Of a stretch of DNA of 64,000 nucleotides, positions 8,433 to 32,422 are shown in pieces. The stretch lies in the NCBI GenBank assembly GCA_963737655.1, contig CAVTTN010000002.1:5344001-5408000 (forward strand), read 5' to 3'. Under the pieces are notes generated by a model that had not been told where the DNA came from, ran no database searches, and saw only the letters and a list, made by a program, of their open reading frames with translations. The first letter of the stretch is position 1, and every line of letters starts with the position of its first letter. Source of the DNA: an uncultured Planctomycetota bacterium (GTDB taxonomy: Bacteria; Planctomycetota; Planctomycetia; Isosphaerales; Isosphaeraceae). Made by a program: the position numbers and the translations under genes.

Positions 8433-8762
8433 GAGGGAGTTCGGTTCCCTGAGAGGGTGTCGGGCGGGGCCGTCCGGCGACGGCGAGCGGGGCGGGAGGC
8501 GGAACCGCGGAAGGATCAACCGGAATCTCAAGAGAGCGCCATCCGATCGCCGACCGCCCCGGCCATCGGCGGGGTTTGTGCAATTGTTGTACCTTGTCCC
8601 GCCGGGCGAGGCAAGGGGGCGCCGACCCGGGGCGGTCACGGGGGCGGAAAATGGTGGCCGCCAGGGCCGTTGGTGACGGCCGGGCTCGAGGGAACTCGAT
8701 TGTCCTGGGGAGAGCCCGTCAGCGGACCCGTCTTGTGGGATGGTTGGGCTTCTTGCTAGGTT

Positions 8763-9011: not shown

Positions 9012-12000
9012 ATGCACGCCCCCACCACCGCCCCATCGCCGGTCGTGCCCGACCTCGAAGACCGATCGGCCCGCCTTCCTCGGCTGAAGGCGACGATCGA
9101 GCATGCCTCGCACCTCCTGCCGGCCCAGGGGCCGATCACCGTCTTCATCCACCACAACACGCTCCACGCCTTCGAGGACCTGCCGTTCCACGAGGCCGTG
9201 AAGCGAGGGGCGCAGGTCTTCGGGTGCCATCCGTATCTGTCCGAAGACCGCTACCGCGAAGAGCTTCGGAAGGGCCGAATCCGGTTCTCCGAGCTCCAGG
9301 ACGTTTTGGAGGAAGACCTCGGCGACCGGGCGACGGAGCCGGTCCCCTGTTTCGGGACGCTCCGCGACCTTCGCCTGACGATGCTCCAGTACCCGTTGCG
9401 GACCGGCCCGACCGAGGAGCTGACCTGGTACGTGGCCGAGGCCAACGCCCTGAGGAGGGTCCGTCAGGAGGCGAGCTCGGCGATCCGGGGCGCTTGATCG
9501 CCGAGACCCGCCGCTGGGTCTTCCGCGACCTCCGGGGAGGCGGCGACCCGGGTTCCAACGGCTCGGCCAGGGCCGTCCTGAATGGCTCGACCCGCGGGAA
9601 GACGCCTCGCCGGGCCTCGGAGAGCCTCGGCCGGCTCCTGGATCGGTTCGGCGAATCGACGATGGAATCCTGGACCGACGACGACTGGGAACGGTTCACG
9701 CTCCAGGCCCTCTGGCGGGTCTGCTGCGACGGGGTCCGCGACCTCCCGCCGTTCACCGTCCCGCCGGTCATGGCGATCCGCCACCGGGACCTGCTCCTGG
9801 AAGCGACCGGGGACGACTCCGATACGCCGGTCCATGACCTCCTGATCCGGTTCTGCGCGGCGTTCCTGGATCAGGGCTTCGCCCCCTGGCAGTTGCCCCG
9901 GAGGGACGAGGGGTTCTTCACCGCGTTCCTCGCGCTCTACGGCCAGCCGAACGGCCCGCCCGATCGCTGGATGCGAGGGCTGGACAAGGTATTGCGCCGG
10001 CTGGAGGCCGAACGCGTCGGCCCCCTGGAATCGATCCTCGAATCGCTCGAACAGCTCGGCGTGGCCGAGGCGGAATGGGAGGGCTATCTCTCCTCCACGT
10101 TCCTGGCGCTCCGGGGCTGGGGCGGGATGCTCGCCCAGATCGAGGCCCGAGGCGACCGCGTGGCCCATCCGGCCCCCCCGGGCACCGTGATCGAGTTCCT
10201 GGCCGTCCGCCTGATCCTCGACCGCTTCTCCCTGGCGTTCACGGCCCGGGAGTGCCTGGCGATCACCGAGCCGGTGGGCGCGTTCTGGAGGCTGGCCCGG
10301 GGGCGGATCGATCCCCACTGGCCGCCCAGCGTCGAGCAGAGGGCATTCCTGGTCTTCCAGCTCGCGCAGGTCCAGGGCCTCTCGCCGGACGTCCTCTACC
10401 GCCTCGGCCCGGAGGAGTGGGCGAGGCTCGTGGAGCAGATCGAGGCGTTCTCCGCCCTGGAGAGGCGGCGGGTCTTCCACCTGGCGTATGAGAGGCGGTT
10501 CTGCACCCAGTCCCTCGACGCCATCGGCCTCCACGCCAGGAAGACCCACGGCCGACCCGACGCGCCGAGCTTCCAGGTGTGTTGCTGCATCGACGACCGC
10601 GAGGAGTCATTCCGGAGGCACCTGGAGGAGATCGAGCCCTCGGTGGAGACGTTCGGCGCGGCGGGCTTCTACGCCGTGGCCATGTACTATCGAGGGGCCG
10701 GGGACGCGAACTTCGTCCCGCTCTGCCCGGTGGTGATCCGCCCGAATCACTGGGTGGCCGAGGAAGTCGGCGAGGAGGCCGGGAAGGCCCATCGCCGGAG
10801 GGCCCGGACGAGACGGGCCCTGGGTGCGGCGTCCCATCAGTTCCACGTCGGCAGCCGGTCGTTCGCGCTGGGGGCGATCCTGACGGGGACCGTGGGCGTC
10901 CTGGCGTCGATCCCTTTGGTCGCCCGGATCCTGTTTCCCCGGCTCACGGCGAAGGTCCGGGGGACGGTGGGCCGGTGGGTCGAGACCCCCCCGGCGACGA
11001 AGCTCCGGCTGGAGAGGGCCGAGGCCGAGCCGGGCGACGAGGGCGGCCACCTGGGCTTCTCGCTCGAGGAGATGACCCGGATCGGCGAGCGGTTCCTCCG
11101 CGACCTGGGGCTGACCTCCGGGTTCGCCCGGCTGATGGTCCTGATCGGCCACGGCTCGGACAGCCTGAACAACCCGCACAACTCGGCGTACAACTGCGGG
11201 GCGTGCGGAGGCTCGGCCGGCGGCCCGAACGCCCGGGCCCTGGCCCAGATCCTGAATGACCCGAGGGTCCGCTCCGGCCTGGCCTCCGGCGGCCTGACGA
11301 TCCCCGAGGCGACCGCGTTCGTGGGCAGCTATCACGACACCTGCGACGACTCGGTGGTCTTCTCCGACCTCGACCGGCTGCCGGCGACCCATCGGGACGA
11401 CTTCGCCCGGGCCCGGAAGGCGATCGACGAGACCTGCCGACGCAACGCCCACGAGAGGGCCCGGCGGTTCATGTCGGCGCCGCTGAACCTGTCGTATTCC
11501 GGGGCGTTGCAGCACGTCGAGGGGCGGTCGGAGGACCTGGCGCAGACCCGCCCCGAGCTCGGCCACGCCACCAATGCCATCACGATCGTCGGCCGGAGGG
11601 CCTGGACCCGCGGCCTCTTCCTCGATCGCCGGGCGTTCCTCACGTCCTACGACCCGACCCAGGACGACGCCTCCGGGACGATCCTCAAGGGCATCCTCCA
11701 GGCCGTCTTCCCGGTCTGTTCGGGGATCAACCTGGAATACTATTTCTCCCACGTCGACAACGTCGGCTTCGGCGCCGGGACGAAGCTGCCCCACAACCTG
11801 GCGGCGCTCCTGGGCGTGATGGACGGCGCGGCCAGCGACCTTCGGACCGGCCTGCCCTGGCAGATGGTCGAGATCCACGAGCCGGTGCGCTCGCTGTTCA
11901 TGATCGAGACGACGCCGGAGACCATGCGGGGAATCCTCGACGGCAACGCGATGATCGGCCGGCTGAGCCGCAACGGCTGGGTCCTCCTGACGGTGATCCA

Positions 12001-23219: not shown

Positions 23220-23786
23220 TCAGGCGGTCTCGTGCTTGCCCAGGGGGGACTCGGGGGCCAGGCGGTCGCGGCCGTGGGCTTCCTGGTCGTCGTCGTGCTC
23301 GTCGGCGGTCATCTCGTCCATGACGGGGTTGACCCCCTCGCCCATCTCCTCGACGAGCTTGCCGCCGAGCCACGCGGTATAGAGCGAGAGCCCGCCTCCG
23401 GCCATCGCCAGGAGCCGCGAGGCCGCGCTCGCCGGCCGCCCTCGCTGGTGGTCGCGCACCCGCATCACGTAGCTCGTGACGAACAGGGTGCCGACGACCG
23501 AGTTGCCCAGCGCATGGGTGGTGGCAACCTCGTGGCTCGGGCGGTCTACGGGGATCTTGCTGTAATCGTAAAGCCCCGTGACGGCGGACCCCGCGGCGCC
23601 CACCAGCCCCACGGCCAGGCTCAGCCGGGCCGCGTCGTCGTATTTCTTCTCGCCGGTGATCATCGCCAGGCCGTCGCAGACGTTGCTGAACGACCAGGCC
23701 CCCAGAGGCAACGCCACGATCGCCGGATGCGGGCTGTGGCCGAGCAAGTCGTAAGTCTTTTTCACCAAAAGCGAGATCGGGTCCAT
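23220..23786 (-). CDS. DUF2231 family membrane protein
   Basis: HPAIVALPLG, TGLYDY, HALGN, WLGGKLV. Confidence 0.75.
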   Translation of the reverse strand: MDPISLLVKKTYDLLGHSPHPAIVALPLGAWSFSNVCDGLAMITGEKKYDDAARLSLAVGLVGAAGSAVTGLYDYSKIPVDRPSHEVATTHALGNSVVGTLFVTSYVMRVRDHQRGRPASAASRLLAMAGGGLSLYTAWLGGKLVEEMGEGVNPVMDEMTADEHDDDQEAHGRDRLAPESPLGKHETA

Positions 23787-23969: not shown

Positions 23970-24362
23970 TCACTGCGGCCCGCGAGGGGTGCCGGTCTTG
24001 ATCGTGTCGGGTGCCTTGGTGGCTCCGGCGGCCGAGGCGCCGGTGTCGTCGGCCGGGGGATTGGCGCGGACGGAATCGGGGTTGCCTCCCTTGGGCAACT
24101 GGGGCTGACCGCCCTCGGTGCCTCCGCCGTTGCCTCCGGGTCCGGAGTCTCGGTGATTGTCGCCGGCCTGGCCCAGGGCCTCGCCGCGACCGGACGTCGA
24201 GGGGAGGGGCAGGTCGTCGCGGACGGCCGGCTTCTCGGTGCCTCCGGGCGCGGGGCCGTTGGTGAACCCCGCGTTCGTCCCGACCGGCCGATCGCACCCG
24301 GCCAGTCCGGCCAGCCCGAGGGTCGCCGTCAGCCCCAGGGAAAGACGCCAGTTCCTCATCAT
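23970..24362 (-). CDS. Small low-complexity lipoprotein
   Basis: Lipobox LAGC after hydrophobic signal; Gly/Pro/Asp-rich mature part. Confidence 0.7.
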   Translation of the reverse strand: MMRNWRLSLGLTATLGLAGLAGCDRPVGTNAGFTNGPAPGGTEKPAVRDDLPLPSTSGRGEALGQAGDNHRDSGPGGNGGGTEGGQPQLPKGGNPDSVRANPPADDTGASAAGATKAPDTIKTGTPRGPQ

Positions 24363-24447
24363 CGGAGTCCTCGCGCGGGGCATCCCGCGAACAGCAAAAA
24401 CGCGCCACTTTTCCAAGGCCGAAACGGCCCCGATGTTCGGGAGAAGC

Positions 24448-24463
24448 CGCGAACGCCGTGCCG
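24448..24463 (-). promoter_or_regulatory. Putative sigma54 promoter for the lipoprotein gene
   Basis: Minus strand CGGCACGGCGTTCGCG, GG-N10-GC. Confidence 0.5.
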
Positions 24464-24464
24464 T

Positions 24465-24480
24465 CGGCATGCCGGATGCG
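24465..24480 (+). promoter_or_regulatory. Putative sigma54 promoter for yihY-like gene
   Basis: CGGCATGCCGGATGCG, GG-N10-GC, about 70 nt before ATG. Confidence 0.55.
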
Positions 24481-24549
24481 ACGAAGACGCGCCCCGAGGC
24501 GCCTCGATCCCCGCACGGTGCGCGACCGACCCGAGAGAAGGCCGATCCG

Positions 24550-25533
24550 ATGCCGACCTCCGACAGATTCCCCCCGCTCCGCCTCAAAGCGGCCCTGTCC
24601 CTGGGCGGGCTCTCGCCGAGAGAGGTCGTCTCGCGGACCTGGAAGAAGCTCAACGAGCACGAGATCCTCACCCGGGCCTCGGCCATCTCGTTCTACGCCA
24701 TGCTGGCGTTCGTCCCTTTGCTCGCCCTGATCCTCACGGTGCTCGTCCAGCTCCTGCCGGACCTCTCCGGCCTGACCGGCCGGACCACCGGGCTGGCGAA
24801 CCTGACCGTCGATCAGTTCCGGGCCACCCTCCGCGAGGCGCTGCCTCAAGAGGCCTACGGCGTGGTCGAGGACCAGATCAAAAGGATGCAGAAGGAGCCG
24901 CCGTTCGGCCTGCTCTCCTTCGGCCTGCTGATCGCCCTGTGGACCTCCACCAGCCTGTTCGTGACCGTGATGGACTCCATGAACCGGGTCTGCGGGGTGG
25001 AGGAGACCCGGTCGTTCCTCCGCCAGAGGGTCGTGGCCCTGATCATGACGCTGATCCAGTCGGCCATCCTGATCGGCGCGTTGATCGTGGTGGTCGCCGG
25101 GCCGGAGATCCTCCACTGGGTCGGCATCCACGGCCATTCGGCGACCCTGGCGCTGATCGTCCAGTGGTCGGTGGTCGCCCTGATGGTCCTCCTGAGCTTC
25201 GCCCTGGCGTTCTACGTCGGGCCCGACGCCGACCAGAAATGGGAGTGGATCACCCCGGGCAGCTTCGTCGGGACGCTCGCCTTCCTCGGCTTCACGGTCC
25301 TGTTCCGCATCTACATCCAGAAGTTCGCCCACTACGACCGCGCCTATGGATCGCTCGGGGGCGTGATGGCGCTGATGCTCTGGCTCTGGGTCACCAGCGT
25401 GATCCTGCTGACGGCCGGGCAGGTGAATCAGGTGATCGAGGACGCGTCTCCCCTGGGCAAGACGTTCGGCCAGAAGACCGACAAGACCGACGCGCCGGAC
25501 TTCTCCGAGATGACTCCGCAGCCGTTGAAGTGA
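24550..25533 (+). CDS. YihY/BrkB family membrane protein
   Basis: ASAISFYAMLAFVP, WEWITPG, YDRAYGSLGGVMALMLWLW. Confidence 0.9.
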   Translation: MPTSDRFPPLRLKAALSLGGLSPREVVSRTWKKLNEHEILTRASAISFYAMLAFVPLLALILTVLVQLLPDLSGLTGRTTGLANLTVDQFRATLREALPQEAYGVVEDQIKRMQKEPPFGLLSFGLLIALWTSTSLFVTVMDSMNRVCGVEETRSFLRQRVVALIMTLIQSAILIGALIVVVAGPEILHWVGIHGHSATLALIVQWSVVALMVLLSFALAFYVGPDADQKWEWITPGSFVGTLAFLGFTVLFRIYIQKFAHYDRAYGSLGGVMALMLWLWVTSVILLTAGQVNQVIEDASPLGKTFGQKTDKTDAPDFSEMTPQPLK

Positions 25534-25535
25534 GG

Positions 25536-26107
25536 TCAGAAGTCCGGGAACGTCATCGCGCCGAGGACCAGGCCCTGGCCAAAGACCTGTTCGATCCGTC
25601 CCGAGGGGACCACGTCGCGATCGGCGAAGAGCCAGCAGAGCCCGCGGCCGGGGTCGGAGGCGAGCACGCGGAACCCGCCGAAGACCTCGGCCCCGAGATC
25701 GGCAGGTTCGCGCGTCCCCTCGTCGCCAGGTCCTTCGCCATCAGCCCGAGGATCGACGGCAAGAGCTCCAGGGCCGCCGGGCCGTGATAGACCAGGCGAT
25801 GGGCGGGGTGGTCCGTCAGGAGGAACGGAGGCTCCGGGTATCGCCAGGGGGCCTCGCTGATCCAGTACCACCGGGGACCGTTCCAGACGTGGCCTCGGAG
25901 GATGTCCGGGTCGCCGACCGACCGCGTCTCGGTGGCGGCGATCGCGCGGAAGCTCCCGAGGGCGTCCTCGTCGGCCATCTCCAGGTCGTCGGGATCAACG
26001 AGATCGAACAGGTCGAATTCCACGGCCCTGGGGCCGCACCGGAAGGGCCTCCCCGGAGGGCCGAGGACATCCATCACCATCTGAAGCGTGCCGGGCCGGG
26101 TCTCCAT
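25536..26107 (-). CDS. Hypothetical protein (probable frameshift near 25710)
   Basis: Ordinary composition in ORF 25553-26731 from METRPG, continuing in frame 25536-25871. Confidence 0.5.
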
Positions 26108-26175
26108 CGTCGTCCCCCTCGGGAGAACGATCTCTCGATCTCCGAGGATACCATCGGGAACGGCGATCGGCACGA

Positions 26176-27695
26176 TCAGGATCGCCCCGCCCCGGCCTTG
26201 CGGTTGGCCCGGGTCTCCTGGAGGTTGGACCAGAGCTTGCGGCCCTGGCGGCCGACCTGGCCGATCAGCCTCCGGGCCTTGGAGCGCGTCGAGGTCTCGT
26301 ACATGTGACGGAGGACGGCCGTCTTCTCGGCGCGGTCGAGCAACGGCGCGAGCGCCGGCAGGAATTTCTCGGCCAGGCCCGCCGGCGGATCGACCTCGAC
26401 GACCCCCGCCACCGCCTCGGGCAAGGCCGAGCGGACCGCCGCCAGCTTCGCCCGGGCGATCGCCTCGCGGTTCACCGCGCCGTCCATCGGCAAGCGAGCC
26501 ATCCCGACGACCACGGCCAGGATCGGCGGCCGATCCAGGGTGGGGACCTTGGCGAAATAGGCGTCGATGGCGTCGATCAGGCGGATCTCGGGCGTGAGGT
26601 CGTCCCGGGAGGCGTCCACGACCAGCAGGATCAAATCGGCGTCGCGGGCGTCGTCGGCGGCCTCCCGGCGCGTGGCGCGGTCCCGGGCCGACTCGGGGAC
26701 GTGCACGGTATAGCCGGGGATCTCGACCCACTGGGCCGTCTTCAGGAGGTCGGCGAGCCCGTCGTCGAAGCCGTCGGCCGAGAGCCGGCCCTTGACGACG
26801 TTCAGGTGGTGGTCGCAGGCGGCCTTCGCCGCCTCGATCAGGGCGGTCTTGCCCACGTCCCGGGCCCCGTCAGCGCGATCCTCAGGGGGGACGGCCCGGC
26901 GACCTCCTTCGGCCGGGCCCCGGGCCGGGCCTTCCTCGTGAGCTTGCGATAGCCCTCCGCCCCGATCGCCAAACGGCCGCTGTAGAGCTCGATCAGGTGG
27001 ATTCCCAATCGGTTCACGTAGGCGCGGAAGAACCAGCGCAACACGTTGTGCTGCATGCTCTTCCACGCCGGCTGCGTCAGCAGTTTCGTGGTCCCGAGGC
27101 GGACCAATCCGGTCGTCGGCTGGAACAGGGGCAGCAGGTAACCATAGACCTCGTTCGCCTTGGAGATCCAACCGGCGGCCTGCACGGCCTTCTTCCAGTG
27201 GCTGGCCGTGACCATGTCGCCGCCGGGCACCTCCCGGCAGAGCGCCTCCAGGTCCTCGGCCGCGAGCTCCAGGGCCGTGAGGATCTGGACCACCGGCAGA
27301 TGCTCCACCGGGTTGGTCGAGAGCGGGTGATAATGGGCCGCGAGCCTCGCGACCAGCTTCTTGCCGGTCTCGACGTAGACATCCACGTTCGTCAACGATT
27401 CCATCGGCAAGGTTTCGGACGTTTCCGCTTCCTGCTCGACGAGGTCCCAGGCCAGCTTGTCGTGGTTGGAGAACGTCCGGGGGGAGTCCCAGTCGATCGG
27501 AGGCAAGACGGCCTCGCGATCTCTCGTCCAGCGGACGGCGAGGAAGTACGCGACGGTCCCCAGCGCCGCCCAGATCGCGAAGCCATAGAAGCCCCACCCA
27601 TGATCCTTCAGCCACAACGCCCCGAGGCCGATGTACGCGGCCATCGGGCCGACGAAGAGGACCAGGAGGACCCAGACTCGCCAGCTTCGGACCAC
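26176..27695 (-). CDS. Membrane-anchored GTPase-like protein (frameshift ~26865)
   Basis: Two N-terminal TMs; joined frames give P-loop ALTGARDVGKT, EIPGY, ADLILLVVDA. Confidence 0.7.
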
Positions 27696-27705
27696 GGGAC
27701 ACTCC

Positions 27706-27839
27706 CTATGGGTGCATGGAACGCACCCATCCTGAGGCGGCCTCGGGGCCGCCATCGGCAGATCAGATCATTCGGAAGCCGACGCCGACTATACCATCGG
27801 AGGCCGGCCGCTTGCGTTGGTGCATTTCATGCACCCTAC
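27706..27839. repeat. REPIN-like element, family A (left copy degenerate)
   Basis: ATGGGTGCATGGAACGCACCCAT ... GGTGCATTTCATGCACCCTAC. Confidence 0.8.
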
Positions 27840-27935
27840 GGGACAGGAGCCATCTCCCCAAACGCTTCGGGGCCGCCCCGAATCGGATTCGGAGCGGCCC
27901 CGAGGGGACGTCTCTGGCCGTCGGTCGCCGACCGA

Positions 27936-28349
27936 TCAATGGCCGGGCATGTGTCGGGCGATCGATTCGGGGACGTGCATGTGACGGATGCGGTCGCGGA
28001 CCGACTCCGGCAGGTTACGGAGCGAGTCGGGCACGTAGCGATCGTACCAGGACTCCTCCTCGCGACGGGTCAGCAGCACCGTCAGCAACACGCCCAGGCC
28101 GAAGCCGACGCCGAACCCCATGAGGACCGAGGGCGCGGGATTGCGGGCGATCATCCCCTCGGCCTGGCGGTAGCCGTGGGTGATCCCCTCGCGGGCCGCC
28201 CCGTAGCCGTCTCGGACGCGCTCGCCGACCTGCGAGGCGCCGTCCTGGATCTTCTGGCCGGCTTCGTGGATGCGGTCGCCCAGGCCCTGGCCCTGGCCCT
28301 GCCCGGCGCCGCCGTTGTGCCGCTCCTGGCCTTGCTTTCCGGTCGGCAT
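27936..28349 (-). CDS. DUF883/ElaB-like small stress protein
   Basis: GGGAGG SD; amphipathic repeats then IARNPAPSVLMGFGVGFGLG TM. Confidence 0.7.
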   Translation of the reverse strand: MPTGKQGQERHNGGAGQGQGQGLGDRIHEAGQKIQDGASQVGERVRDGYGAAREGITHGYRQAEGMIARNPAPSVLMGFGVGFGLGVLLTVLLTRREEESWYDRYVPDSLRNLPESVRDRIRHMHVPESIARHMPGH

Positions 28350-28457
28350 GATCGCCTCCCTTACTCGTAAAACGATCTGAGGAACTCGCGGAACTCCCGA
28401 CGGGCCGCCCCCCGAGCGAATCGGCGGGCACCCGTCACGACTCTCGACCCAGGAGGA

Positions 28458-28473
28458 AGCAAGGCCCGTGCCG
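28458..28473 (-). promoter_or_regulatory. Putative sigma54 promoter for DUF883-like gene
   Basis: Minus strand CGGCACGGGCCTTGCT, close to TGGCAC-N5-TTGCW. Confidence 0.7.
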
Positions 28474-28653
28474 ACGACCCGTCCCATCCCGGCCCGCCCG
28501 ACTCGCCTCCGAAAAAAATCATTTGGCGATCGGGCCGAAATCTCCCGTACTCTGAGACGAAGACTGTGTGCCGGGCGCCCGGGACACGGGACTCGCCGGC
28601 CCGGCAACGGGTCGGTCGGGGCCTCGCCGGAAAAAGGCCGACTCGCCGGACTC

Positions 28654-28669
28654 TGGCATGAAGGGTGCC
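28654..28669 (+). promoter_or_regulatory. Putative sigma54 promoter for small lipoprotein
   Basis: TGGCATGAAGGGTGCC, GG-N10-GC. Confidence 0.55.
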
Positions 28670-28764
28670 CCGTCGCTATAACTGTCGTGGGGCGAGGACC
28701 GACCCATCGGGGGATCGGCCCGCCTGCGGACCATCTGCACCATCGAAACCGAGGAATCGTCACC

Positions 28765-28941
28765 ATGAAGCGCTCGCTGATCCTGTCGCTGGCCCTGGCC
28801 GTCATCGCTCCCATCGGCCTCATCGGCTGCGGCGAGGAGACCGGCACCACCACCAAGACCACCACCACGACCCCGGCCGGCAAGGTCACCGAGACCTCCT
28901 CCGACAAGGTCGAGAAGACCGGCGACATGAAGGACAAGTGA
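28765..28941 (+). CDS. 58-aa Thr-rich lipoprotein
   Basis: GAGGA SD, MKRSLILS...LIGC lipobox. Confidence 0.75.
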   Translation: MKRSLILSLALAVIAPIGLIGCGEETGTTTKTTTTTPAGKVTETSSDKVEKTGDMKDK

Positions 28942-28989
28942 GCGCCTTCCCCCGGGACGCTCACTAGCCTTTTCGATCCGATCGTTTCG

Positions 28990-29027
28990 ACGCCCTCCGG
29001 GAAGTTTTCCCGGGGGGTGTTTTTTTT
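28990..29027 (+). terminator. Intrinsic terminator
   Basis: ACGCCCTCCGGGAA-GTT-TTCCCGGGGGGTGT followed by T run. Confidence 0.75.
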
Positions 29028-29074
29028 CGCCTCGGGACCCCACTCTCGAGAAAATCACCGAACCGCACGAGGAT

Positions 29075-29090
29075 TGGCACTCCCCTTGCA
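29075..29090 (+). promoter_or_regulatory. sigma54 promoter upstream of csbD-like gene
   Basis: TGGCACTCCCCTTGCA fits TGGCAC-N5-TTGCA exactly. Confidence 0.8.
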
Positions 29091-29162
29091 GTGCATTCAC
29101 GTCCCATGTGACACCGGCTCCGAGGCCGGGAGGATCGGTTCGAGAAGACCCGGAGAACGACG

Positions 29163-29585
29163 ATGATCAACGCTCAGGAACTTCAGGGGCAGTGGAACCA
29201 GCTCAAGGGCAAGGTCAAGGAGAAGTGGGGCCAGCTCTCCGACGATGACCTGAACATCAGCGGCGGGAACTTCGACCAGCTCGTCGGCAAGATCCAGCAG
29301 AGGACCGGCGAGGGCCGCGAGGCCATCGAGAAGTTCTTCAACACGCTGACCGCCCAGGGCGGCTCGGCCGTCTCCCAGGCCGCCGAGAAGGCCCGCGACT
29401 TCGCCCAGCACGCCGGCGAACGCCTCCGCGACTCCTACGGCTCCGCCACCGACTTCGCCCGGGACCGCTACGAGATGGCCGAGGACCTGGTCCGCCACCG
29501 GCCCGGCCAGTCCGTCGCCGCGGCCTTCGGCCTCGGCCTGGTGGTCGGCCTGGTGGTCGGCATCGCCGTCCGAAGCAGCCGATAA
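29163..29585 (+). CDS. CsbD family protein with DUF883-like C-terminus
   Basis: QGQWNQLKGKVKEKWGQLSDDDL...QLVGKIQQRTG. Confidence 0.9.
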   Translation: MINAQELQGQWNQLKGKVKEKWGQLSDDDLNISGGNFDQLVGKIQQRTGEGREAIEKFFNTLTAQGGSAVSQAAEKARDFAQHAGERLRDSYGSATDFARDRYEMAEDLVRHRPGQSVAAAFGLGLVVGLVVGIAVRSSR

Positions 29586-29606: not shown

Positions 29607-29663
29607 GTAGGGCAGGCCTTGGCCTGCCGGACCGTGGGGACGGCAGGCCAAGGCCTGCCCTAC
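29607..29663. repeat. REPIN-like element, family B
   Basis: GTAGGGCAGGCCTTGGCCTGCC ... GGCAGGCCAAGGCCTGCCCTAC. Confidence 0.85.
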
Positions 29664-29768
29664 GAAGGATAAAACCAGGCAAATCACCGTCGATCCGCAG
29701 CACGTGAACCGCGTGTCCGTCCTTCGTCCGCCTTCACTTCCCCTCACCTCTGGGATAGGAGCATCGCC

Positions 29769-29945
29769 ATGCTTCGCTGGGCCCTGACGTTCGCGATCCT
29801 CGCCCTCGTGGCCGGTCTCCTCGGCTTCGGCGGCCTTGCCGGCGACTTCTCGTACATCGCCAAGATCCTCCTGTTCGTCTTCGTGGTCCTGTTCGTCGTC
29901 GCCCTGATCGCCGGCCGCCGCGTCCTGGGCGGGCCAACGGTCTAG
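29769..29945 (+). CDS. DUF1328 family small membrane protein (58 aa, absent from ORF track)
   Basis: [45 protein letters not shown]. Confidence 0.88.
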
Positions 29946-30053: not shown

Positions 30054-30758
30054 TCACCCCCCCATCTTCCACAATTTCTCCAGGACCGCGAAGGTCTCCG
30101 GGTCGTAAGCCTTGAGCTCGGCCCGGACGAACGGATAAAAATCGTTCGTCCCGAAGAACGCCTCGGTCGCCTCGGCGAAGAATTCCATCGGGTCGGTCAG
30201 GGCATACGCCTTCTCGTCCCGGCCGTTGATCCGCAGGACCGATTGATAGCTCCCCGCCGCCTTCGCCCTCTCGAACGCCCTCCTCACGTCCTTGTTCTCG
30301 AACCCCCCGTCCAGCTTCTGGTGATGGTAGCCGTGGGCCAGCTCGTGGAGGACCATCCACGGCTGATCGATCGTCCACGACAGGAAGTTCTTGGCGTTGG
30401 CGATCTCGACGCACCGGGCCTTCTCCTCGCTCATCCCGTGATCGCGGAGCCAGCCGGCGTCGGGGTGGTACGCCATGCATGGATGATGAGGCTCGGCCTC
30501 CTCGACCCAGATCGTGATGGTGCGCAACTTACCGACAGCATCGGAAGGCAGCCTCCGAACGATCTGCGAAAGCTGGACGCGGAGGAGGTCCAGGGTCTTG
30601 GCGGCGAGCTCGGGCCGATCGCGGAGGAATGCCTCGTTCACCCGGACGGGCCAGCCCTCGATGTCGCGATCGGCGTAGGTCTCCGCCCCTTTCGCGGCCC
30701 CGGCGACGATCGCCGGCAACAGGGCCAGGAGGCGTAACTTCCGTAATGCTAGTGACAT
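30054..30758 (-). CDS. Secreted HExxH zinc metallopeptidase-like protein
   Basis: VLHELAHGYHH and EFFAEATEAFF; signal peptide. Confidence 0.8.
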   Translation of the reverse strand: MSLALRKLRLLALLPAIVAGAAKGAETYADRDIEGWPVRVNEAFLRDRPELAAKTLDLLRVQLSQIVRRLPSDAVGKLRTITIWVEEAEPHHPCMAYHPDAGWLRDHGMSEEKARCVEIANAKNFLSWTIDQPWMVLHELAHGYHHQKLDGGFENKDVRRAFERAKAAGSYQSVLRINGRDEKAYALTDPMEFFAEATEAFFGTNDFYPFVRAELKAYDPETFAVLEKLWKMGG

Positions 30759-30931
30759 GGGTCAAGCTCCGGGGGGCGGATTCCGCACGGGCTCCGATGG
30801 CCCGTGAATTGCCTTCGGAGATACCAGAACCGAAGCCGCCGGGCGAGGGAGTTCCCGGCCCCCGAGTCCCCGGAGCCATCCCGGGCGGGCACACCCCGCC
30901 GAAATTTTCGCTTTTTTCGGAGATTAGCGCA

Positions 30932-32422
30932 GTGAATCGTTGGAAATCCCGCCCGACCGTACTCGCCGCCCTCGCGGTGCTGCTGACCCTGTCCTCCCCC
31001 CGAGAACTTCTTGCCCAGATCCCCGGGCTTCCGGCGCCTCCGGCCGCCAAGGGGTCTGCGACGGCCCCGAAGCCCGATTCGGGCCTCGACACGCCCAAGG
31101 CCAAGGTCGCCACGACCTCGGGCCCGATCGCCCTCCGCGAGACCGTCTCGGACTCCGCCCTCAAGACGACCCTGGAACGGCTCCTGGCCCGTTATCCGGG
31201 CGTCCGCAACGTGAATGTGGCGGTGGACAACGGGTTTGTGACGCTCGAAGGGCAGGTGGACGACGACGAGACCCACGACGAGATCACCGACTTCGTCCGC
31301 CGGGTCGAGGGGGTCCGCCTGGTCCTGAACCTGATGCTGACCGACGACGAGGTGATGTCCGGCACCCAGCTTGCCCGGCGCGAGCTCAGCGTCTTCACCA
31401 CCTTCTTCGCCCGCCGATGGTTGCTGATGCTGGTGAGCCTGGTCGTGGTCCTGGCCGGGGTGCTCCTGGCCCGGCTGTTCGCCCGCTATTCCGAAACGCT
31501 GCTGGCCCCATTCGTCCCCAACCCCCTGCTCCGCTCGGTCGTCGGCTCGGTGCTTGGCGGGGTGATCGTCCTGGGCGGCCTGATCCTGGCGCTGTCGATC
31601 TTGAGGCTGACTCATGCGGTGCTGTCGATCGTGGGGCTGGCGAGCATCGTCGGGCTGGCCGTGGGGTTCGCGTTCAAGGACATCACGGAGAACTTCATCG
31701 CGTCGGTCCTGCTGGGCGTCCGTCGGCCGTTCCGGGTGGGAGACGCCATCCAGGTGGCCGGCCAGTCCGGCGTGGTCCAGTCGCTGAACACCCGGGCGAC
31801 CATGCTCGTGACGGCCGAGGGGAAGCACGTCCGGATCCCGAACGTGGTGATCTACAAGGAGATCCTCGTCAACTCCTCGACCAGCTCGCGGACCCGGGGG
31901 ACGTTCGACCTGGTGATCCCGGCGGAGGCCTCGACCTCGGCGGCCCTGGAGGCGATCGCCTCGGCCCTCCGTTCGCAAGACGGCATCCTCGCCGACCCGT
32001 CGCCCCGCGCCCTGGTCGATGCGATCGAACCGGGCGGGATCAGGCTCCGCGCCTTCTTCTGGACGCCGACCCAGGGGATCGACGGCGATCAGCTTCTCAG
32101 CGATGCGAAACTCAAGGTGAAAGTGGCCCTCCAGAAGGCCGGGGGCCTCGTCGCGACGCCACCCCCGGCCGCTCCGGCGGCCCTCCCCTTGCCTAAAGGC
32201 CCCGAGGCCCTGCCCGCGCCGACGCCCGAACCCGCGACCGTCGCCAGGGCCGAGGCCAACCTCCGCCGAGACACCCGGGCCGCCGCCCAGGCGCCGCCGG
32301 TGACCGACGGCCGGACGACCCCGATCGCCCCCTTCCTGCTCCACGGCGGCTCCCGGGTCGAGGACGAAGGGGTCAACCTGCTCGAAGACCACCAACCCTC
32401 GGCCAACGGCGCCTCGAAGTGA
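30932..32422 (+). CDS. BON-domain mechanosensitive channel, MscS family
   Basis: BON (VAVDNGFVTLEG), GFAFKDITENF, PFRVGDAI, VRIPN. Confidence 0.88.
   Translation: MNRWKSRPTVLAALAVLLTLSSPRELLAQIPGLPAPPAAKGSATAPKPDSGLDTPKAKVATTSGPIALRETVSDSALKTTLERLLARYPGVRNVNVAVDNGFVTLEGQVDDDETHDEITDFVRRVEGVRLVLNLMLTDDEVMSGTQLARRELSVFTTFFARRWLLMLVSLVVVLAGVLLARLFARYSETLLAPFVPNPLLRSVVGSVLGGVIVLGGLILALSILRLTHAVLSIVGLASIVGLAVGFAFKDITENFIASVLLGVRRPFRVGDAIQVAGQSGVVQSLNTRATMLVTAEGKHVRIPNVVIYKEILVNSSTSSRTRGTFDLVIPAEASTSAALEAIASALRSQDGILADPSPRALVDAIEPGGIRLRAFFWTPTQGIDGDQLLSDAKLKVKVALQKAGGLVATPPPAAPAALPLPKGPEALPAPTPEPATVARAEANLRRDTRAAAQAPPVTDGRTTPIAPFLLHGGSRVEDEGVNLLEDHQPSANGASK

Follow-up and report, generated by a model that had tools for sequence, protein, structure and literature searches.

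We analysed a 64,000-nt stretch of DNA from an uncultured planctomycete of the Isosphaeraceae (GCA_963737655.1, contig CAVTTN010000002.1, positions 5,344,001 to 5,408,000 of the forward strand; hereafter the window), in which an initial annotation had pointed out five -24/-12 motifs before a group of small stress-type genes. Judged by their sequence and its conservation, these motifs are promoter boxes of the sigma-54 type. They belong to one half of a stress-gene cluster whose other half, in this genome, lies in a separate block 74 kb away. In that block are the genes for a degenerate histidine kinase and for a receiver-type activator whose loop reads GAFTSA, along with a conserved, putative palindromic operator. 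The boxes are very probably working sigma-54 promoters, and the genes that they precede probably make up a general-stress programme. We propose that the general stress response of these planctomycetes is a sigma-54 programme served by this activator subfamily, a model to which, taken whole, we assign a probability of roughly 0.55.

Five sigma-54-type boxes precede small stress-type genes

Each of the five 16-mers occupies exactly the position given in the initial annotation and points, from 70-109 nt upstream, at the gene assigned to it there. The csbD box (29075-29090, +; predicted start site near 29101) precedes a CsbD protein with a DUF883-like C-terminal tail (29163-29585, +; PF05532 over the cut-off, PF19029 below it). 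The box at 28473-28458 (-; predicted start site near 28447) faces a tail-anchored hydrophilic small protein (27936-28349, -). Its gene is present as described, whereas the family name, DUF883-like, found no Pfam or NCBIfam match to back it; we keep it as a label for a protein that is DUF883/ElaB-like by look only, whose best named match in the Atlas (0.88; DUF883_C on 17% of its members) is a lead. Next comes the box at 28654-28669 (+; predicted start site near 28680), upstream of an open reading frame for a 58-aa Thr-rich lipoprotein (28765-28941, +; Pfam match below cut-off only). The last two boxes stand back to back with a 1-nt gap. The yihY box (24465-24480, +; predicted start site near 24491) serves a YihY/BrkB-family membrane protein (24550-25533, +; PF03631, TIGR00765), and the weak fifth box (24463-24448, -; predicted start site near 24437) precedes an open reading frame for a predicted lipoprotein with a signal peptide ending in LAGC (23970-24362, -; no Pfam match). 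The five genes, described earlier as neighbouring, are close by without adjoining one another: between them come a GTPase-like gene, which is split, and one further open reading frame. All boxes are non-coding, sense-oriented and upstream of first genes, and no sigma-70-like promoters were found between positions 23 and 31 kb of the window.

The sigma-54 consensus is TGGCAC-N5-TTGC-like. In all five boxes the GG and GC lie exactly 10 nt apart, as had been claimed, and within such a context; the fifth, weak and conserved, reads TTCGC where the other four have TTGC, ATGC or GTGC.

The loose pattern YGGCAY-N7-GC is not above chance in the window (19 matches vs 14.1 expected from the genome mean). 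Because it is uninformative at the base composition of this genome (G000 in our numbering; 68.7% GC, 88% complete), we called genes with our own codon model (6118 in the genome) and tested the motif genome-wide. YGGCAY-N5-TTGC occurs 48 times in sense orientation in upstream regions and 10 times in antisense, against 1.8 +/- 1.9 in dinucleotide shuffles, and spacers of 2-4 and 6-10 nt yield only 1-3 matches each. We then used a sigma-54 matrix built from 123 training sites, all outside the window, with a third-order background and a cut-off of 12.25 (~15% estimated false discovery). In non-divergent regions it gave 60 sense vs 7 antisense matches at 12 bits. Four of the five boxes exceed the cut-off: csbD scores 18.8, the DUF883-like gene 16.5, the Thr-rich lipoprotein 13.4 and yihY 12.8, with chances of such a score in 200 nt of 0.0001, 0.0004, 0.0025 and 0.003; the fifth box scores 6.8 (chance 0.05). 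Genome-wide, 128/4475 genes score above the cut-off. Four passing boxes fell within 6 kb in 30/2000 random placements. Two four-box clusters of this kind exist in the genome, the one in the window and one at C2:5447551-5453957. By spacing, strand and held-out matrix, the motif lies far above background. We dropped another matrix, refined against a zero-order background, because it slid towards a generic word.

The boxes are conserved in relatives and beyond

The motif recurs upstream of orthologs of csbD, yihY, the DUF883-like gene and the Thr-rich lipoprotein. Among relatives, 18/29 csbD loci pass the matrix (1 antisense; 0.76 expected from shuffles). In a phylum-wide sample, which has three loci in common with the first, 15/29 pass, spread over nine families, with none in four other families. 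Box counts for yihY are 9/21, after 5/26 relative loci had been dropped (one at a contig edge, four 5'-truncated), and for GlsB/YeaQ 12/29. Across these tests shuffles predict 0.6-0.8, and the control rpmI has a box in 0/29. All seven distinct upstream regions of the DUF883-like gene pass, and five orthologs of the Thr-rich lipoprotein score 12.1, 16.0, 7.5, 22.7 and 18.3 at 78-100 nt. Matches without a returned locus were left out, 27/57 in one search and 9/38 relatives in another. KGG, DUF2171, GlsB and BON were picked after they appeared in the G000 target list described below, so that their rate in G000 is no unbiased test and the counts in relatives are the held-out part.

The fifth box is intact in 6/8 aligned regions, with gaps to the yihY box of 1, 0, 11, 11, 1 and 1 nt, always with TCGC at the -12 end; in the other two regions it is off by one base or replaced by an overlapping pair. 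Its orthologs score 7.7-11.8, and homologs of its lipoprotein are divergent from yihY in the relatives G008, G013 and G044. Because the gap is so small, two holoenzymes at the back-to-back pair would probably exclude each other. Helical phasing of back-to-back boxes is not general, as the gaps are scattered.

In other phyla, csbD has a box in 8/20 loci of Acidobacteriota and in 2/13 of Verrucomicrobiota, the latter too few to call, and in 1/30 of Pseudomonadota (1.34 expected); these counts omit one unpublished genome.

The second half of the cluster encodes a candidate activator

In relatives the window genes belong to a longer unit that comprises yihY, the lipoprotein, DUF2231, a ferritin-like protein, a HisKA-HATPase protein, a 65-aa small protein, the activator and CBS, and further holin_3_6, a small DUF883, a DUF3618-like protein (a label by eye; Pfam yields DUF883 or nothing), the GTPase-like protein, the DUF883-like protein, the Thr-lipoprotein, csbD and DUF1328. 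From this gene order, a rearrangement has split the cluster in G000. The boxes follow the transcription units: first genes carry one (DUF3618-like 11/11, DUF883-like 7/7, ferritin-like 7/9) and inner genes do not (holin_3_6 0/13, small DUF883 0/10, DUF1328 0/6; G000 copies included throughout). An activator gene lies within 9/19 20-kb cluster regions of relatives, and in two more genomes it is 4-6 kb from yihY or csbD.

An enhancer-binding protein had been postulated, and a candidate for it is thus found inside the conserved cluster. The activator (G000:C2:5449601-5450993) has a receiver-AAA+-HTH_8 architecture with the phospho-Asp; it is split by a frameshift in this assembly and whole in relatives, 12 of which have it at 81-91% identity. 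Its loop reads GAFTSA or GSFTSA in all 17 rows of its clade, where the canonical loop is GAFTGA. In a quick tree, made with no bootstrap, this clade, a sister clade and two close G000 paralogs (C2:1897682 and C2:7344722, both with canonical loops) form one branch (Shimodaira-Hasegawa-like approximate likelihood ratio test, 100) with a shared recognition helix. NorR is reported to be active when serine takes the place of the second glycine in GAFTGA, and NtrC G219C, the cysteine variant, to form open complexes only when enhancer DNA is absent (PMC2941729). By analogy with this NtrC variant, the loop serine may free the activator from enhancers.

The activator reaches none of the named equivalog cut-offs (AtoC 485 of 714, NtrC 438 of 559). 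A scan of the genome collection with it was saturated by generic activators at 40-51% identity, which we kept as outgroup only. At E 1e-140, and with only 13 candidates scored per genome, the subfamily is present in 20/28 genomes of its own family, 15/25 of family f5, 1/4 of f6 and 0/45 of f3 and f4 together. In a second family, its members adjoin DUF2171, DUF1328 and similar genes. No subfamily match was found in the relative G018 (98% complete), whose csbD box reaches only 9.2.

At its own promoter the activator has a variant box, placed 70-90 nt upstream and scoring 11.1 in G000, which is overlapped by a palindrome, TGCYCR-N4-YGRGCA. The right half of this palindrome occurs at 10/11 activator promoters vs 7/126 other G000 promoters, and 6/7 held-out clade members score over 11 (0.67 expected), as against 0/12 of the sister clade; this test leaves out 21 rows without a detectable start, among them all 14 rows from family f5. 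Relative to the sigma-54 box of the divergent small protein, the palindrome is 103-160 nt upstream, the usual enhancer distance. Two other patterns were rejected as shared enhancers: GCA-N7-TGC is merely the reverse strand of sigma-54 boxes, and TGHGCA-N6-TGCDCA (9/72 vs 3.0 in shuffles) was set aside because other spacings score 8-9 as well.

The HisKA-HATPase partner keeps its H-box and N-box Asn and is devoid of G1/G2 motifs (DxGxG, GxGLGL) and of a sensor. It likely passes phosphate on or takes it off. A search of 200 other genomes of the phylum with its profile gave no clear ortholog (3 weak matches); look-alikes in other phyla in the Atlas are a lead only, and a single-sequence fold reached a predicted local distance difference test score of 46.

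RpoN and the predicted sigma-54 set

G000 encodes a complete RpoN (AID, CBD and DBD) with an intact RpoN box, together with 11 full-strength activator domains and 3 weaker or split ones. The rpoN gene carries a sigma-54 box of its own (17.3) and adjoins Dps (G000:C2:4726034-4734999); nearby runs a series of SRPBCC, Zn-dehydrogenase and short-chain dehydrogenase genes headed by a 19.7 box. Families among the predicted targets that we take to be of stress type are BON, DUF2382, DUF3072, long catalase, KGG, YflT, topoisomerase IB and SRPBCC, as well as CBS, GlsB, DUF4142, ferritin, HPF, GH77, YihY and CsbD. General-stress marker effector families are thus present both in the cluster and in the predicted target set; PRC, Ku and DUF892 were not found in G000. 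Three csrA paralogs are each boxed (G000:C2:2647034, 15.6; 3497068, 17.6; 3925271, 15.6), which suggests a post-transcriptional layer.

No G000 protein reaches the RpoS or SigB cut-offs, and neither a SigB-type factor nor NepR was found in this 88%-complete genome. None of its five group 1-3 sigma genes has a sigma-54 box, so that a Borrelia-like cascade is not indicated. A stressosome-like operon (RsbR, RsbS, RsbT and, by eye, an RsbX-like protein; G000:C2:1951000-1957814) continues into genes for two hybrid histidine kinases; in this genome, in which no SigB was found, it is a possible input to the activator.

A working model and its alternatives

In the model that we propose, sigma-54 holoenzyme would sit closed on the stress promoters until stress leads to phosphorylation of the activator; the degenerate kinase would either pass the phosphate on or take it off. 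From the upstream palindrome, the activator would open the divergent operon of the small protein, kinase and ferritin-like protein in an enhancer-dependent manner and, at the same time, block its own promoter. The cluster activator, or its two close paralogs, would also open the scattered promoters; because no enhancer was found there, we suggest that this may happen without one, from solution.

Several observations weigh against this model. The predicted sigma-54 set is broad: its 126 genes include dnaK, groES, hsp20, two amtB, three csrA and rpoN, only ~18/126 fall into stress-type Pfam families, and 57/126 have no Pfam family. BON genes pass in 2/9, KGG loci in only 3/6, and Dps fails (6.6); among relatives, 11/29 csbD and 12/21 yihY loci fail the matrix. 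Moreover, kin are not independent, so that the counts overstate significance and are not formal probabilities. A shared upstream activator site, to which the initial annotation had looked, did not emerge: dyad, word and expectation-maximization searches found no common enhancer for the window promoters (degenerate sites could escape such de novo searches), these promoters have no intergenic palindrome match, and upstream of other sigma-54 boxes the palindrome shows no enrichment (13 matches vs 15.4 expected). Family f4 retains the cluster with its boxes (csbD-DUF3618-like-small protein), yet it has a subfamily match in 0/28 genomes and, in 3/5 genomes, another activator clade beside the cluster. 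G000 also has three group-2 sigma factors, for which RpoS models are best but below cut-off (236-264 vs 379). Finally, the activator and kinase genes are both frameshifted in this assembly, probably by sequencing error, since 8/34 tested genes are split and these two at homopolymer runs.

Part of this evidence would also fit a narrower role, in which the cluster activator runs only its own divergent operon, other activators open the window genes, and the 'regulon' belongs only loosely to a broad sigma-54 programme. The confinement of the palindromic operator to the activator promoter, the breadth of the target list and the different clade beside the same cluster in family f4 all speak for it, whereas many genera keep the activator in linkage with genes of the yihY/csbD side and no second shared upstream site was found either; we consider this account rather unlikely, and still the one to take most seriously. 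It is improbable, in our estimate, that the genes are driven by sigma-54 in answer to a different cue, as a stationary, dormancy, nitrogen-starvation or cell-differentiation programme of budding bacteria. The boxes on amtB, an ANTAR regulator, csrA, PEP-CTERM and many exported proteins would suit such a programme, and the stress labels are borrowed from other phyla; against it, the marker families match those reported for the RpoS and EcfG regulons (PMC5437024, PMC7083833) and include catalase, KGG, YflT and DUF2171.

Sigma-54 might instead merely damp or supplement transcription whose main source is a group-2 (RpoS-like) or extracytoplasmic function (ECF) sigma factor. The three group-2 factors and the missing enhancer lend this some colour; however, only first genes have boxes before them, and these at a uniform promoter distance, the upstream sets share no other motif, and the unboxed group 1-3 sigma genes leave no cascade, and we therefore find it very unlikely. 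Least credible of all are chance matches in DNA of 69% GC: the loose pattern is at background level and the fifth box alone has p ~0.05, but the spacing, strand and conservation tests contradict them so clearly that we give this explanation almost no weight.

A sigma-54 stress programme with the cluster activator subfamily remains the reading that we prefer. The suggestion that the stress response runs on RpoN plus an activator is supported by the motif, its conservation, rpoN and the cluster activator, but it does not extend to sigma-54 as a dedicated stress factor. As far as the predicted targets go, sigma-54 is not one here, because they include dnaK, groES, hsp20, amtB, csrA and rpoN. More tentatively, and with the odds against it, one might see a fourth general-stress architecture beside SigB, RpoS and EcfG, with sigma-54 on dozens of promoters, one AAA+ subfamily and a sensor-less phosphotransferase, largely enhancer-free, that extends across Planctomycetota and as far as Acidobacteriota.

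Soil and peat harbour abundant planctomycetes and Acidobacteria, and we found no description of their master stress regulator in searchable papers. If the model is true, that regulator would be named as rpoN plus one activator subfamily, and sigma-54 with an ATP-driven activator would replace the dedicated stress sigma factors of model bacteria, adding a stress switch gated by ATP hydrolysis and not by sigma-factor release. Exact promoters, start sites and an operator would become available to test in cultured relatives, as would a regulatory handle on many small unnamed proteins, given the 57 predicted targets without a Pfam family.

Other features of the window

Downstream of the fifth-box lipoprotein gene lies a DUF2231 membrane protein (23220-23786, -; PF09990; own score 2.5, no box), which in relatives is divergent from yihY. 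The GTPase-like membrane protein (26176-27695, -), a cluster member of ~510-520 aa in relatives with a box in 0/7, occupies two frames in this assembly. Housekeeping genes are among those split by frameshifts, which indicates assembly error, so broken window genes need cautious reading. A terminator-like hairpin with a T run (28989-29031, +) separates the Thr-rich lipoprotein gene from the csbD promoter. After csbD, here as in relatives, comes a DUF1328 (YtjA-like) small membrane protein (29769-29945, +; PF07043; own score 2.2, no box), and a long inverted repeat lies between the two near 29610-29665.

A sixth, borderline box that the initial annotation had overlooked (30798-30813, +; score 11.8) precedes a BON-MscS gene (30932-32422, +; Pfam BON and MS_channel) and fits the MscS sigma-54 enrichment reported for Planctomycetia (PMC12316311). 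An exported zinc-peptidase-like protein (30054-30758, -) matches Pfam ATLF and M90 below cut-off only. Farther away are divergent boxes at 8594 (-; score 11.7) and 8763 (+; score 13.8), the latter before an apparently split DabA-like inorganic carbon transporter gene at 9012. A palindromic repeat resembling repetitive extragenic palindromes, at 1446, 1562, 27818, 50159, 56421 and 56538, gives weak, false matrix scores of 7-9.

Comparison with known systems

The SigB regulon of Bacillus holds the same small-protein families as those found here. So does the RpoS regulon of Salmonella and E. coli, with the reported small proteins yjbJ/CsbD, ytjA/DUF1328 and yciG/KGG (PMC5437024). In Pseudomonadota csbD is reported to be run by RpoS or EcfG (PMC5437024, PMC7083833), and its loci there, unlike those of planctomycetes, are boxed in only 1/30. 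The EcfG-NepR-PhyR system of Alphaproteobacteria has effectors in common with the present set: the EcfG regulon of Sphingopyxis granuli includes csbD, catalase and mscS (PMC7083833). Its phosphorelay through the His phosphotransferase PhyT, described in Sphingomonas (PMC5898713), is a functional parallel to the role that we suggest for the degenerate kinase. That system is switched by an ECF sigma factor and an anti-sigma factor, whereas the genes described here have -24/-12 promoters that need an ATPase activator.

NtrBC, AtoSC and ZraSR are further two-component systems of the NtrC family. The cluster activator resembles that family in its receiver-AAA+-HTH_8 architecture and in an operator 103-160 nt upstream of a divergent sigma-54 box, a layout with a divergent target that is also described for NorR-norVW (PMC2941729). 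It differs in its GAFTSA loop, in a sensor-less partner kinase without G1/G2 and in having many putative targets without a matching operator. In Borrelia, too, sigma-54 and an activator (Rrp2-RpoN-RpoS) are described as heading an adaptive programme; there sigma-54 acts via rpoS, whereas here the effector genes themselves carry the boxes and the group 1-3 sigma genes have none.

Closest to our findings is a 2025 matrix survey that reports, in silico, sigma-54 promoters for MscS, UspA, chaperones, CsrA and rpoN in Planctomycetia (PMC12316311), as found here. Its text has 0 matches for 'general stress' or 'CsbD' and, in the passages covered, names no cluster or activator, points on which further supplements could bear; 11 of its supplements have 0 matches for six COG numbers, those of CsbD, YihY, DUF1328, YeaQ, KGG and ElaB. 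The accessible part of PMC3162934 has no passage on planctomycetes, and that of PMC8103513 covers EcfG only. Within the literature covered we found no publication on sigma-54 control of CsbD-type genes in Planctomycetota; outside this coverage are most subscription papers and the study of sigma-54 in Pirellula by Studholme and Dixon (2004), which may list some of these targets. Undescribed as a system within the searchable literature, the arrangement is real and conserved, and it is a new wiring of known parts.

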